Positions 47,301 through 53,300 of a DNA stretch of 64,000 bases are shown in pieces (position 1 is the stretch's first letter; every line of letters starts with the position of its first letter). Location of the stretch: positions 46,153 to 110,152 of the forward strand of contig JBFWJG010000001.1 in the NCBI GenBank assembly GCA_050253335.1, written 5' to 3'. Made by a program: the position numbers. This DNA is from Deferribacterales bacterium (lineage in GTDB: Bacteria; Chrysiogenota; Deferribacteres; Deferribacterales; Geovibrionaceae).

Positions 47301-50300
47301 TGAAGAGTTGAAAAGACTCGTACAGGAAGGACGGTTTAAATATAAAAGTATCTCCGTTAATGGCGGTCTGACCAAGTTGAAGCACTTAGGCATACTAGGT
47401 GCGGTTGCACCTGCTATGAGCGGCTTAGGGAGCATTCAGTTTAATAAATATGATAACGGCATTGTGATGTACTTTGCTGAAAAGGTCATGGAGGGAAATA
47501 TGACATTAGAAGAATTAGGTAAAATGGTTGAGCAACAGCAAGACGAAATCGAAAAATGCAGAAGGGACATTGACGCACTTATGAAGGCAATCGCCGCAGG
47601 CGGTACTTCATCGTCTAGCTTCGCAAGTTCCAGTCACTACGGTGTATCAGGGCAGAAAATGGCAAGTAAGCTTTAACCTGAAGCCGAAACAGGGGAAAGC
47701 CCCCTGTCTGCAACTAAGCTTGTACTGATGAGGCTGCGGTAAAAAATTTAAAAACGACCCGCAAAAAATTACAAAAAACACACATCTTCAAAAAATTCAA
47801 AAAAAATCCTGAAAACCAATCAAAACAGTTTTGACATTTAACACAAAAGGAGCGGAGTGTAAGACACCTGTTAAGAGATTTTTCTAAATTATCTCATCAT
47901 TAGCGGGTTCTTATCTTACACCCCGTCACCTTTTTGTTTGTTTATTTTACAGAAAAGCCCACTACGGCTTCGGGGGTGATCACTCTGAATGTGAATGATT
48001 CCGTAAGGAACAGGTGCACCTTTTCGGAATCGTGGTTGTGGTAGCCAACTGCAAAATCCTGCCCTATTGTGAGTTCAAGGTCGCCTTCCCTGTCAGCGAC
48101 GAGGAGAGCACCGTCAACCGCTTCCGAATAGACAACGGAACCTTTGATCTGCTGTTTGATCAGGTCTCCCAGTGTTCCGCCGGGGAAGAGCCGTGCGAGG
48201 TATTTCCACAGAGCGGGATTGACAACGAGATTTGCGCCGCCTGTAATCCCTTCCTTCATCATGCGTGTCTGAGCTTCGCTCACAGCGTCCACTATGCTGT
48301 CCTTGTCCAGAGTCATTGCAATTTTTGACTTGGCAGTAAGCTGGTTCAAGCCCACAATGCCGCTGTCCTTAAAACCGTTGAAAACAGCATTTTCCTCGAA
48401 TGCAGCAAGCTTTCTGGCCGCTTCGGTGAGGGGCTCCAGCTCAAGGTCTTTTGCGCCTCTGTCTATGTTGTCCAGCTCCCATATATCAAGGGAGAAATTG
48501 ACTCTCGCCTCAACAAGAGGAAGTATTTTGTGTACACCGAAGCATACCTCTCCTGCTTTCTGCTTAGCGGGCAGAGCAAGGCGCCCGAGGCTGACTGAAG
48601 TGTAATCTATGCCGTAAGGGCCTTCAACATCCGCAAACTTTCTGGCTGAAAGGTTAGCGGACAGGGTTTCTTTAGCGAGTGTGTTTATTTCTTTCCATGC
48701 TGCTGCGCTTATCGGTGCGAAATCTTTTCTGAGCAGATTCATATATTCCTCCTTGGTTATTTTTTCTTCAGGCTGCCGATTCCGAGCCCGCCGCTTTCGC
48801 CTGCCGCCGGTTCCGCGCCTTCGGCGGAAGCGCCTGAAAGAAATTCGTCTTCCACTTCTTTATATCCCTGCTGATAAAACTCTTCCTCCTGAGGATCAAG
48901 CTCCTTGAGCAGACGGAGAAATTCTCCGGCGTGCACCTTCTCCTCGTCGGCTATATCCATAAGAACCGCCTGAGCCAGCTTGTTGTCGGTGGATTCGGCA
49001 AGCTGCTGATAAAGCTGGATAGCTTCATATTCTGCCGCAACCATGAAACGGATGGCTCTGACAAGTTCCTGGTCTGTAAGTTTCCGGTCGTGTTTCAAAC
49101 CGCTGAAGGGATTTCCAAAATCGGGCATTTTATCCTCCTGTGCTCCTTTTTATTTAATAATACAATATAAACAGTGATATTTCGCAAGCATTACTCATGA
49201 TAATTAATATAAGATTAATTTTTGGAAAATACAAAGGATAATTTTTATTATTTAGATATTGAGTAAAAAAGGAGATGAGATGAAAACAGTTGAAAATAAA
49301 GCTGATGCCTAATAATATTCAGAAGATAAAATTAAGCTGAGAGGTGTCTCATGAAACTTACTGCTCCGAAATTTATTACCTGGCTTCTGGGTACATTTCT
49401 GGGTGTTCTGGGACTGCTTGTATATTTCGGCGTGGTGAGCATCAGCGTCATGACTTTCAGCCCCTTCTGGCTTGTTGTGGCAGGCTTCGGAATACTCGCC
49501 GCCGCGCCTCTCTTCTCCGGACTGTAAACCGTCCGCTATCCTGCATATCTTCATAAAATCCTCCTCAGTCCCCCTTTATTAAAGGGGGAAGTTATTGCCG
49601 TCAAAAGTAAAATGCTTTCTATGAACGCAAGTGAAACATTCGAAGTGAAGCCGAACAGATTCGGCGCGGGCGTGCGGGAAAACGGGCATGGTGCAGCGTT
49701 TCTGAACTGTCATAAATAAAAAAGCGGCTTCCCTGAAACTCAGGAAAGCCGCTTTGCTGTATCTTGCTAAAATATTCTGATTCTTATTTATGGCATGTGT
49801 TGCATGACTTTTTCACACGCTGTTTCGTGTGGCAGTCGATGCAGAGTTTGTCGTGGAAGTCGTTTTTCATGCCTTTTATTTCGCCTACTTCAAACTTCAG
49901 AGCGCCTGCTTCGGGATCAGCGTGGCATTCTGTACATGCCATCTTCTGAGCGTGTGCGAGGTGTTCAAAGTTTACTGCGGGCTTTGTGGGCGCGGGAACA
50001 TATTTCTCTGCTATGTTGATTATCTCCATAGCGGAGGCGATGTCCATGAGCTCAGCGGGGTTTCCTGCAAATGCGGGTTCAGCGGGTGCTTCCTCTGCTG
50101 CTGCAGCTTTCTGGACAACAGGAGCCGCGGTTTCTTCAACAGCGGGGGCTGTCCATGTGTCTATGGCTTCCGTGAGTTCAAGCGCTCTTGTGAAGAGGGC
50201 ATCAAGATAGTCAGGGTTGTGAACTCCTTTTGAGCCGTCCATTTCAGCTATTCTGATTATGCGTGCGTATTCGTTGAAGAGCGCGCGTTTGCCCATGGGC

Positions 50301-53300
50301 ATATCGTCTCTTTCAGAGAAGAGCTGAGAGTATTTCCCTTTCACTTCGGCGAGCCTTTCTGCAAAAGCTTCCTGAGTGTCGGTCATGATATCGGCGTATG
50401 ATTCGTCGTGGCACGCTACGCATTTGTCTGTATTGGGACGGTCAAACGCTGTGTCGTGGCAGTCAGAGCAGGAGAGGTCAGCCATGTACCATCTCATTTC
50501 GTCCACGCCTTTAACATATGTGCCTTCCTGAAGGCCTTTCTGCATTGTATGGCAAGCAGCGCAGTCCTCGTTTGCGGGAACTGTCTGCACTTTTTCTCTT
50601 ACTGTATCGTGACAGTCGAAGCATGTCTGCATTTTGGGCTTGTTATAAAGCTCGCCGCCGTGGGCAACCCCGAGGTGGCAGTTTGTGCAGAGGAGTCCTG
50701 CGCTGATGTGTTTTGCGTGGTTAGGCTCAACACCTTTGGTCACAGGTTCGCCTGTTATGCTTGCGAGTCCGTATGATGTTCTATAGGAGGGGTTCTTAAC
50801 TTCGTCGATGTTTCTGAAATGGATTCCGACGGAGATAAGCTTCTCTCTGCGGAGCTGCTGGTTTACATCATCCGAGTGGCAGAAAAGACATGCCGCATCG
50901 GGCGCGGCGTGTTCAGCCGCCACAGGGTCAGTAGCCGCATGAGTAAGAAGTTCGAGAACTTTTTCGTCTGATACGAATATTTCATATAAAAGACTTTTTG
51001 TACCGGCCACGACATGCGCGTCAAGATAACCGAGTACGCCGGGATCTCCGTGACAGTCAAGACAGCTTACGTCCGCCTTGCTGTGAATGTTTTTGTCCCA
51101 CGTGAAGTGTTCGCCCCGTACGCCGACTCTCTGTTCTGCATGACACGTTTTACAGAATGTGTCCGTACTGGTCATGTGCATAGCCTCAAGACCGCCAAAC
51201 GTGGCTCCCACAACAATAACAATTATGGCAAGTACGAAGATGAGAGGGTCTTTACGGCTGAAGTTTTTGAGTTTCTGCCACATTATAAAGCCTCCGTTAT
51301 GGTGAAAGAAGGGCAGGAATACCCCTTGCGGAAATTCCTGCCCTTTTATTGGTGCCTGTTAATTAAACAACAAGAAGAAGGATAAGTGCAACTACGAGTG
51401 CGTAGATTGCGATTGACTCGATAAGCGCAAGACCGATGATCATGGTAGTGGAGATTTTACCGGATGCGCTGGGGTTTCTGGAGATGCCTTCCACTGCGCC
51501 GCGGATAGCGTTACCCTGACCCATACCTGTACCGAGAGCGGCAATACCCATACCGAAGCCTGCTGCTATGTAGTGTGCCCATTTGTAAGTTTCGCCGCCT
51601 TCTGCTGCGAATGCGCTTACTGAAAATACAGCCATGATAGCTGCTACGTTGAAAAGAATTTTTGCTGCTTTAGACATTTAAGTCCTCCTGATATTAGTTT
51701 ATCTCTTAGTGTGCTTCTTCAAGTGCACCACTGATATAGATCATAGAAAGCATCATGAACACATATGCCTGAAGGGCGCCTGTGAACATGCCGAGCATAA
51801 CCATGGGCAGAGGTATAAGGAAGGGTACGAGCATGAAAAGAATAACTATAACAAGCTCCTCACCGAACACGTTACCGAAAAGCCTCATGGAGAGGGACAT
51901 GGGTCTTGCCAGGTGACCGATGACCTCGATAATGAACATAAGGGGGGCAAGGAAAGCCACGGGCCCGAGGAAATGCTTGATGTAGTGTGCGCCGTGTTTT
52001 TTAATTCCTATTGCCTGATAAGTGAAGAACACCACCAGAGCGGGTGCTATGGTTGAGTTCAGGTTGGATGTGGGTGCGAGAAAACCCGGGATAAGCCCCA
52101 TCCAGTTTGAGAAGAGTACATAAACGCCTATACCGAAAATGAGGGGTATGTAGGGTTTGCCTTCTTCGCCCATGAGTTCAACGCCCATGTTGTAAACAGC
52201 GCCTACAGCCATCTCGAAAGCGCCCTGTGCTCTGCCGGGGATTTCGCTGCCCTGTCTGGAGGCTATGCTTCCGAGGAAAAGGGTGAACAGCATTACAAGG
52301 AAAGTCATCATGACATGCCAGTATGTGTGCCCGATGTCCGCGGGAAAAAGCATGGAAATATTAAGCGGGTGTTCCATCTTTAAATTCTCCGTAAAAACAA
52401 TTTAAAACTTTTCAGGTCAGGCGAAAGTCAAGCCGACCCTCCGCATCCGTCTGATGTGTCATCATTTTCGGAGCGGTAGTGGTGTACTGCGGCCGGAAGT
52501 ATACTAAGGGGTACGACAGAGATCCCTACGAGTATGCCTATCAGGCTGACATGAAGATATTCATAAGCGGCCCAGACGGCGGCTCCGGTTCCCACCAGCC
52601 TTATCTGAGAGTTAAAGGCCAGTGCGCCGAAAATCTTACCTTCAAATGCGCTTTTTATCTTCCTTGAAAGCATGAAAAAGTTCAGCACGGCAATTATATA
52701 ACCGCACAGAACTCCAGCCGTGAAGCTTTTATTAAAAAAGATCGTGCATACTGTATACAAGATAGCGAAAAAGATCAATGAAAGAATGAAGATTTTATTT
52801 GTTATCTTCATCAAAAACGCCGGCTTTTTTCATAAAATAAATCATGTTTTTAAATCCCGCGGCAATTCCGAAGAGCATGAAAATAAAGGTGAGTATCGGC
52901 TTGGTTCCGAAAAAACCGTCCAGCCACCAGCCCATGCCGGTTCCGATCAGTATGCTGAACACGAATGACATGCCAATTGAGCTGGCGTGCATTAGTTTGT
53001 CGGCTTTTTTGAGCTTTGATTCCGGTTTGTCTTTTTCTTCATTATTCATACTGCTCTCCGTGAGAAACGGACATTAGCACGGCATATTTATTTTCTCAAG
53101 AAATTATGGCACGAAAACACCTTTATATGCTATAAATGTTGCTTCCAAGAGGTTCCCCTATGAAACTTACCCCGAACGAACTGGCTGTTATGTTCCTCTC
53201 ACTGGGAATCCTGCTCTTCACCTCCAAGCTGTTCGGTGAAATAGCGAAAAAGTACGGCCAGCCGTCCGTTCTGGGCGAGATCCTCGCGGGGATAATTCTG

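Follow-up and report, generated by a model that had tools for sequence, protein, structure and literature searches.

An eleven-haem NapC/NirT/NrfH-superfamily cytochrome with a tethered c7 domain behind atpE, a candidate menaquinol oxidoreductase of Deferribacterota

Membrane cytochromes of the NapC/NirT/NrfH superfamily, such as NrfH of Desulfovibrio vulgaris (2J7A_C), NapC and CymA, have one N-terminal membrane helix followed by a four-haem fold. CymA is a stand-alone tetrahaem protein with 4–5 haem-binding motifs (PMC6295460) and no adjoining cognate reductase gene, and it requires a Lys residue for quinol binding, so that a Lys-to-Gln change cripples the protein (PMC2762525). In ImcH of Geobacter, the NapC-like membrane domain is lengthened by extra haems and shows three membrane helices, a CX3CH motif at haem 1 and a distal Gln; its partner is the c7 protein PpcA, which it binds and reduces (10.1101/2023.05.03.539133). 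NapC, CymA, ImcH and CbcL have been reported missing in Deferribacter (PMC6896113), which agrees with the gap cited in a first-pass annotation of the present locus, and Table S6 of the same paper lists, without a function and as that annotation had supposed, an 11-haem membrane protein of 507 aa (FHQ18_04550). The gap can no longer be called open, however, since PMC11896075 names an orthologue, DSN97_06310 of Deferrivibrio metallireducens, as the 'quinone-converting enzyme CymA', with its locus tag placed beside ATP synthase genes; in the sections consulted of PMC13186404 (2026), no inner-membrane step is named. Both 'cymA' primers of PMC11896075 match exactly inside an 11-haem gene behind atpE in one locus of the class (L016), with a computed product of 177 bp vs 192 stated. 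The general function proposed below is unsurprising and has already been suggested for one orthologue, although the text consulted treats it as a tetrahaem CymA and mentions neither eleven haems, nor a c7 domain, nor gene order. What seems to be undescribed in the literature is this architecture, the occurrence of the family in a second phylum and the change at the quinol site.

The gene analysed here lies, as do all features located below, on the reverse strand of the window, i.e., the whole 64,000-nucleotide stretch of DNA that was analysed. According to ORF reading and motif count, it encodes a membrane-anchored cytochrome c of 499 aa (P0001; 49784–51283) with eleven CxxCH motifs, at residues 44, 74, 132, 199, 221, 241, 272, 288, 450, 481 and 494, which contain all of its Cys residues (22/22), while the catalytic-haem motif CxxCK is absent. 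Hydropathy reveals a single hydrophobic stretch at approximately residues 7–39 and, together with the model, indicates one uncleaved N-terminal helix (residues 13–37; 51173–51247) that ends at His36, invariant in 57/57 class and 50/50 distant orthologues. The match to PF03264 (52 bits vs a cut-off of 24.1, residues 14–145) is the only one in the genome, which confirms the single copy announced by the first-pass annotation. Its eleven motifs, NrfH-type N-terminus and c7 match were likewise recovered, the c7 model TIGR04257 scoring below its cut-off (27.6 vs 40, residues 435–499), as the free trihaem paralogue of this genome does with its own. However, the protein scores well short of the equivalog thresholds for NrfH and NapC (46 bits vs 134 for the NrfH model TIGR03153) and differs from NrfH, NapC and CymA in its length, its eleven haems, an insert between haems 3 and 4 that the alignment shows to be specific to this family, and the lack of the CxxCHxM of the strict NrfH criterion at haem 1, where it carries CKTCHAE. 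ImcH is also distinct, since the 11-haem family shows one helix, CxxCH at haem 1 and Ser/Asp instead of the distal Gln. In hhalign, an ImcH-type protein (L062), a stand-in judged by published features and not Geobacter ImcH itself, covers only residues 12–140 of the 11-haem cytochrome.

The protein can be divided into a series of modules. VIA, PF03264 and alignment place an NrfH/NapC-fold tetrahaem domain at residues 15–212 (haems 1–4; 50648–51241), in which the positions of Lys82, Asp89 and His145 of NrfH align; VIA superposes it on 2J7A_C with Z 8.3 and rmsd 2.9 over 136/145 residues. This Z is near chance level for helical models, yet the coverage of 2J7A_C is almost complete. A c7/ActA-like three-haem step with His189, His192 and Met218 overlaps its end (residues 186–246, haems 4–6; 50546–50728), this being the best stretch for PF14522, with ActA matching at E 1.7e-8. 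It is followed by a module resembling the C-terminal part of NrfA and OcwA (residues 236–377, haems 7–8; 50153–50578) that holds Met267, a three-helix bundle and a DGSxGxHN motif with His355, as found by VIA (Z 11.5–11.6 to OcwA 6I5B, 10.2–10.4 to MccA) and a profile match (E 7.9e-13). OcwA, MccA and NrfA share with it the last two haems, the Met before CxxCH, the helix bundle and DGSxGxHN, but the protein studied here has no active-site haem, is anchored in the inner membrane and carries the NrfH domain ahead of this module. A flexible tether of 29 residues (379–407; 50063–50149), with pLDDT <50 at 385–403, leads to a c7-type trihaem domain (residues 408–499; 49787–50062) with His441, His444 and His477. 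Three CxxCH motifs, two early His and a His before the second motif are common to this domain and to c7/PpcA, and its best PDB matches are c7 proteins (E 0.004–0.03). Moreover, it is a paralogue of the free periplasmic trihaem protein of the genome (L064:2625-3005), with 34 of 79 residues identical (43%), near the 38% given previously. Every conserved His and Met except His36 can be provisionally assigned to a haem by matches to NrfH His145, ActA and OcwA with its His/Met haem 9, an assignment that would suffice for haems 2–11 and leave only haem 1 open. Haem 6 (Met218) and haem 8 (Met267) are probably His/Met-ligated.

The quinol site is predicted, by alignment to NrfH, in the helix at residues 83–103 (50975–51037). 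In this protein, His90 and Ser97 occupy the positions of NrfH Lys82 and Asp89 (CymA K91 and D97), a change accompanied by a one-residue insertion and found in 16/16 orthologues of f1, the family of this genome. The replacement had been missed by the first-pass annotation, although it is present in this very protein. Outside f1, Lys and Asp are kept in 41/41 class orthologues, including that of L016, and in 50/50 distant 8-haem loci, while His36, Glu58, Tyr86 and the remainder of the site are invariant, f1 included. Given the role of Lys in CymA, this retention supports quinol oxidation by the family, whereas the His/Ser pair of f1, set against the crippling Lys-to-Gln change, counts against it in the present protein. 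Such a site seems to be without parallel among the characterised NapC-family members in the literature surveyed, and with both His/Ser and Lys/Asp forms in existence, nature itself offers a comparison of two quinol-site chemistries.

The gene stands behind atpE (F0 subunit c; 51363–51677), atpB (F0 subunit a; 51706–52377) and, at the head of the cluster, atpI with an 'ATPase gene 1' ORF (52428–53049), all identified by profile matches. The link itself, with atpE directly upstream, holds in 43 of the 58 orthologues, the other 15 having left atpE, and comprises 32/32 long forms, G005 (split contig), 2/5 in f6, 7/19 in f7 and 1/1 in f9; the figures given earlier (38 of 62, and 56 overall) were not reproduced. 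The 79-nt spacer after atpE contains, as claimed previously, a hairpin (51309–51345) that is rich in G+C, has only a weak U tail and is conserved in relatives as a structure, the folding energy of the spacer being -27 kcal/mol. Z-scores range from -1.9 to -6.9 in 42/42 spacers, a significance that the mononucleotide shuffles overstate, and a consensus terminator scan does not list this hairpin and reports a strong intrinsic-terminator-like site 3' of the gene (49721–49755). Since the spacers of long forms measure 39–79 nt, little space is left for a promoter after the hairpin, which is probably leaky and lets transcription of atpBE continue into the gene. Among RNA contigs from four runs of one study, one spans 49918–52773 and one bridges the hairpin; as contigs that may contain DNA, they fall short of demonstrating a single transcript. 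In the sole expression data, the RT-qPCR of PMC11896075, the orthologous 'cymA' is repressed by nitrate, and most strongly with H2/nitrate, a pattern expected neither of a constitutive hub nor of a gene tightly coupled to atpBE. Neither class nor distant loci show a steady reductase neighbour, and none was seen by eye beside the forms away from atpE, which would fit a promiscuous donor role like that of CymA.

The family is not restricted to one class, as had been assumed. The search with the 11-haem cytochrome reproduced the 76 homologues noted before (76 of 86 matches at E<=1e-30), but a search from a distant member gives 202 at the same threshold, so that 76 does not stand as the family size, and an 8-haem core occurs in Desulfuromonadales, in a second phylum, in the order atpB-atpE-cbcL-gene and often near imcH. 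Among 50 distant 8-haem loci, a CbcL-type gene for nine haems and six helices lies directly upstream in 28, atpE upstream in 30, the order atpE-cbcL-gene in 25 and NrfD/ferredoxin genes in 31; imcH belongs to the same cluster in four of five longer Desulfuromonadia stretches that were picked for that check. This clustering with cbcL and imcH across phyla strengthens the case for a quinol-oxidising role, and the position between both genes suggests that electrogenic bacteria have a quinol exit that has gone unnoticed. Neighbouring accessions labelled 'ImcH' and 'CbcL' in PMC12133095 may represent the 8-/11-haem family or true ImcH. A role as ImcH substitute was hinted at by the class, where the L062 query finds ImcH-type proteins in only 2/65 genomes, both of f8 and without an orthologue. 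It was rejected, since 26/37 Desulfuromonadia genomes with the 8-haem family also hold ImcH (171/251 overall), which indicates separate families.

Taken with the NrfH fold, the haem wire, the tethered c7 domain, the single copy, the atpE link and the cbcL/imcH clustering, the protein is probably a menaquinol:cytochrome c oxidoreductase of the NapC/NirT/NrfH superfamily that faces the periplasm, has a housekeeping role and carries its own PpcA-like output wire, and is best read as working like CymA and ImcH while being a member of neither. The inner-membrane quinol dehydrogenase proposed in the first-pass annotation is thus retained, but not its uniqueness, the open gap or the restriction to the class. 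Menaquinol would be oxidised at haem 1, next to the membrane helix, with protons released to the periplasm in an electroneutral reaction that would close redox loops with dehydrogenases. Electrons would pass from haems 1–4 of the NrfH fold through the c7/ActA-like haems 5–6 and the NrfA/OcwA-type pair 7–8 to the c7 trihaem, tethered in f1–f5 and a free protein elsewhere, and from there to several periplasmic acceptors, not to one cognate enzyme. Since ImcH reduces PpcA, the c7 fusion mirrors a known step, and this natural NapC–c7 fusion offers a ready model for membrane-to-periplasm hand-off. The protein would be one among several quinol exits in these cells: the genome also contains a CbcL-like cytochrome b adjoining a 27–28-haem cytochrome, a NapH-like ferredoxin adjoining napA, a Rieske/cytochrome b set and an NrfD set. 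These further modules, together with the nitrate repression of the orthologue, leave unsupported the notion of the one dehydrogenase that feeds periplasmic and outer reductases. The modules could be what supplies the extracellular cluster, Nap and the molybdoenzyme. For the quinol-pool exit of Deferribacterota and many Desulfuromonadales, a conserved single-gene candidate can nevertheless now be named. More tentatively, and as a proposal that may well not hold in full, this would be an old and distinct family of inner-membrane quinol oxidoreductases beside ImcH, CbcL and CbcBA, passed down together with atpBE in both Deferribacterota and Desulfuromonadales, with a potential window set by two His/Met haems; in f1–f5, the ImcH-to-PpcA hand-off would have become an intramolecular swinging arm and, in f1, the quinol chemistry would rely on His/Ser.

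The same architecture could also run in the opposite direction, as a menaquinone reductase fed through c7 by a periplasmic hydrogenase or formate dehydrogenase, like Qrc with cytochrome c3, although this is unlikely. In two orthologues, the middle module matches QrcA (NF041781), though below the cut-off, genes that to the eye resemble those for hydrogenase maturation lie 3' of the gene in many f2–f5 loci, and NapC-family proteins have been proposed to run both ways (PMC6295460). However, orthologue transcription was lowest with H2 as donor in PMC11896075, CbcL and ImcH, with whose genes the family clusters, are quinol oxidases, and, given two probable His/Met haems at the far end, electrons would tend to move outwards. 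It is quite unlikely that the f1 site has fallen into disuse, with His90 capping haem 1 and other complexes charging the protein, which would then be no more than a wire or electron store anchored in the membrane. A His residue is able to form a hydrogen bond with quinol and to accept a proton, the rest of the site is invariant, and the place behind atpE is kept in 16/16 f1 loci, despite the paired replacement with its insertion and the further quinol-oxidising modules of the genome. A dedicated NrfH substitute that donates to the orphan NrfA-family cytochrome c552 could be proposed, as the gene for the latter adjoins a resB-like gene without nrfH alongside, in a genome with no other NapC-family gene, and PF02335 occurs in 40/65 class genomes (20/21 in f7); nevertheless, this role is very unlikely, since PF02335 at E<=1e-15 is found in 0/11 genomes of f3, f4 and f5, all of which keep the core gene, the two genes are never neighbours, and PMC11896075 reports a twenty-fold increase of nrfA in the same condition that lowered 'cymA'. 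Finally, a self-contained reductase with its own active site in the NrfA-like part is scarcely credible, even though OcwA, MccA and nitrite reductases are the best structural matches, because this likeness is confined to the terminal haem pair with its helix bundle (residues 236–381), without CxxCK, and the conserved His and Met would be enough to close haems 2–11.

Within the class, 60/65 genomes match, two of them (G048 and G063) through the c7 piece only, so that the core is present in 58/65; the 58 carriers agree with the first-pass annotation, but not its denominator of 68. The proposed split also stands, with the long form (32 loci in the core comparison) in f1–f5 and shorter forms elsewhere, although the '7-haem' form mostly hides an eighth motif, CX3CH, at haem 8 in 12/12 such loci, and L059 alone is truly 7-haem. 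In a core tree built by a quick method only, the 32 long forms constitute one clade (SH-aLRT 99), while the base of the tree of fused and free c7 domains (88 columns) is unresolved and does not show a single origin of the fusion. The linker, 28–40 aa long among the 20 of 32 long forms listed, is Ala/Pro/Glu-rich in this genus, in line with the Ala/Pro linker described earlier, but Glu/Lys/Ala-rich in other long forms. Free c7 occurs in 61/65 class genomes and is kept beside the fused form in the same genomes. Its identification as NapM was rejected, since it lies among unrelated genes in 8/8 stretches and NapM is here a separate 4-haem gene beside napA. Foldseek returned nothing at E<=0.001, the look-alike clusters of the ESM Atlas (0.91) bear only automatic names, and a second model, of the P0089 core, reaches pLDDT 74.

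The gene at 49784-51283 on the (-) strand encodes P0001, a 499-residue protein in which there is a single hydrophobic helix and all 22 cysteines lie within 11 CxxCH motifs, and the 8-haem core of this protein is present once each in 58 of 65 genomes of the class; thus, the conserved, single-copy 11-haem cytochrome proposed in the first-pass annotation is borne out. Pfam recognizes a NapC/NirT domain above cut-off at residues 14-145, so the annotated N-terminus also stands and places P0001 in the NapC/NirT superfamily, and a c7 domain at 186-246; NCBIfam matches to NrfH and to the c7 trihaem domain lie only below the cut-offs. 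P0001 is the sole match to PF03264 in the window's genome. In an AlphaFold2 model (51-sequence alignment, pLDDT 86.9, pTM 0.69, residues 385-403 disordered), residues 15-212 match NrfH (2J7A_C; Z 8.3, rmsd 2.9, 136/145 residues) and residues 236-372 match OcwA (Z 11.5), with MccA and nitrite reductases next. The stretch 186-246 is similar to the c7-like portion of ActA, while residues 408-499 resemble c7 and share 43% identity with the free periplasmic trihaem encoded in the same genome; 61 of 65 class genomes have relatives of that free form.

P0001 is probably a menaquinol:periplasmic cytochrome oxidoreductase with a tethered shuttle. Menaquinol would be oxidized at haem 1, electroneutrally and on the periplasmic face, and electrons would pass along haems 1-8 to exit via a c7 trihaem, tethered or free; according to the portion of 10.1101/2023.05.03.539133 consulted, quinol oxidation by ImcH is electroneutral and ImcH hands electrons to PpcA. 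Flow through the same chain in reverse, with the protein reducing menaquinone instead, is the foremost alternative and an unlikely one. Scarcely less likely is a quinol site disabled in f1, the family of the window's genome. NrfH Lys82/Asp89 align with His90/Ser97 of P0001, and this His/Ser pair occurs in all 16 f1 orthologues, whereas Lys/Asp is retained in the 41 remaining class orthologues and in all 50 distant 8-haem loci; the family site is therefore canonical and it is the window's lineage that changed. Since quinol binding by CymA requires the Lys (PMC2762525, in part), this site, the most specific new feature of P0001, lowers certainty about its role.

The annotated role as feeder of periplasmic and outer reductases fits that of a hub, but not of a sole quinol exit, since other modules occur in the same genome: a CbcL-like cytochrome b next to a 27-28-haem cytochrome, a NapH-like ferredoxin together with napA, and modules of the Rieske/cytochrome b and NrfD kinds. 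No cognate reductase gene accompanies the cytochrome gene across the loci examined, which makes a shared electron hub more likely than a dedicated subunit. A dedicated electron donor to NrfA is improbable. A reductase with an active site of its own is the most improbable reading of all. The residues conserved outside the motifs are His36, 67, 189, 192, 208 and 355, Met218 and Met267, joined in long forms (core plus tethered trihaem) by His441, 444 and 477. By analogy, His208 would correspond to NrfH His145 and Met218 to a Met of ActA, in which one haem is His/Met-ligated. Met267 and His355 may correspond to residues of OcwA, whose haem 9 is His/Met-ligated (PMC6703420, in part). The putative ligands would fill haems 2-11; haem 1 would stay open, as is the case in quinol sites, and no haem is assigned to His36.

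P0001 would work like CymA and ImcH, but by the membership tests it falls outside NrfH, CymA and ImcH. The annotation described a quinol dehydrogenase part reported missing: the sections of PMC6896113 covered indeed report no NapC, CymA, ImcH or CbcL, and list FHQ18_04550, a 507-aa membrane protein with 11 motifs, a putative orthologue judging from size and label. However, PMC11896075, in its relevant passages, already names DSN97_06310, beside ATP synthase genes, as the quinone-converting enzyme CymA, treated as tetrahaem; its transcription was seen with fumarate alone and was repressed under nitrate, and this repression argues against Nap as the main outlet. In one of 30 loci, L016, the primers of that paper find exact matches within the 11-haem gene (product 177 bp versus the stated 192). 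For one orthologue, then, the literature already proposes the broad function. In PMC13186404, NapC and ImcH go unmentioned across the abstract, passages, section 17, part 2 of section 18 and the searched supplement. PMC11492766, in the part covered, groups Desulfuromonadia proteins under CymA/NapC/NrfH, a group that may include the 8/11-haem family. The literature searched, with few subscription papers, contained no account of the 8/11-haem build, gene order or His/Ser site; the modular build, tethered shuttle, atpBE-cbcL-imcH context and His/Ser site appear to be new.

Complete long forms number 32, all with 11 motifs, in families f1-f5, and named relatives within Deferribacterota are Limisalsivibrio, Denitrovibrio, Seleniivibrio, Deferribacter and Calditerrivibrio. 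The supposed 7-haem short form mostly dissolves, since haem 8 has a CX3CH motif in 12 of 12 loci and only one locus, L059, lacks that haem. A wider genome scan, queried with an alignment of 13 distant matches, found 50 8-haem cores (L111-L160) among the 80 of 110 confirmed loci returned; their hosts are Desulfuromonadales, other deltaproteobacteria, Thermosulfurimonas and Methylomirabilis, and P0266 from Geothermobacter shares 33% identity with P0001 across 387 columns. Together with still wider relatives, these cores overturn the view of a rare, class-restricted family. In Nitrospirota and Desulfurivibrio the same NapC domain is fused to tandem c7 repeats with 11-15 haems (L083-L097, L101-L103, L105, L108-L109), a possible trans-periplasmic wire. 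The C-terminal module is common to many one-helix proteins with 15-23 haems; a large set of these (P0098-P0235) is NapC-like and repeats a c7 plus NrfA-tail module, with Atlas look-alikes in Planctomycetota, Elusimicrobiota and others.

The placement behind atpE holds in 43 of 58 core-bearing class genomes but not in the other 15. Among the 50 distant 8-haem loci, only 35 of which have at least 3.5 kb of sequence upstream, atpE lies on that side in 30, so two phyla share the link to atpBE. In 28 the immediate upstream neighbour is a 9-haem, 6-helix gene that includes a cytochrome b domain, named CbcL-type by the definition in PMC6295460 (in part); 25 show the order atpE-cbcL-gene, and ferredoxin/NrfD genes are nearby in 31. 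An ImcH-type gene ends the cluster in four of five longer stretches, three of the five having been selected because both genes were known to be close. Across 251 sampled Desulfuromonadia genomes, the family occurs in 37, ImcH in 171 and both in 26. A membrane protein of ~595 aa and 14 helices follows the 8-haem gene directly on the opposite strand in 27 of 73 loci (e.g., L121:3743-5683 (-)), with no match in Pfam and NCBIfam searches. Family f8, without an orthologue, carries an ImcH-type protein and, in its genome G064, a canonical 4-haem NrfH-like gene that adjoins an 8-haem HAO-like gene (L061:210-2128, L062:536-1963 and L063:1346-2788 for the set). The window's genome encodes an NrfA-family cytochrome c552 with 6 CxxCH (L075:1154-2923, contig C24) beside a resB-like gene, without nrfH.

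The spacer from atpE to the cytochrome gene is 79 nt in the window and 39-79 nt in the 32 long forms, with a ribosome-binding site at its end; a hairpin is present in all 42 folded spacers and a strong terminator-like site closes the gene. Read-through from atpBE is the simplest account of its transcription, and in one study RNA contigs extend across the spacer, a pattern that cannot itself prove read-through. The adjoining subunit c (51363-51677 (-), 104 aa) has a signal-peptide-like N-terminal extension before its Pfam domain (37-100), as in relatives. Just downstream of the cytochrome gene, 47942-49128 (-) holds a Family 1 encapsulin shell and an EncB-family ferritin-like cargo gene, found in 2 of 30 orthologue loci, and a Mu-like prophage stretch (39747-47676 (+)) with genes for a transposase, transposition ATPase, Gam-like protein, late activator and head maturation protease ends before this locus. 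A short palindromic dispersed repeat lies at 49555-49600; BLAST at E<=1e-3 gives 28 pieces, spread over ~20 contigs of the window's genome, and many unrelated RNA contigs map onto the repeat.
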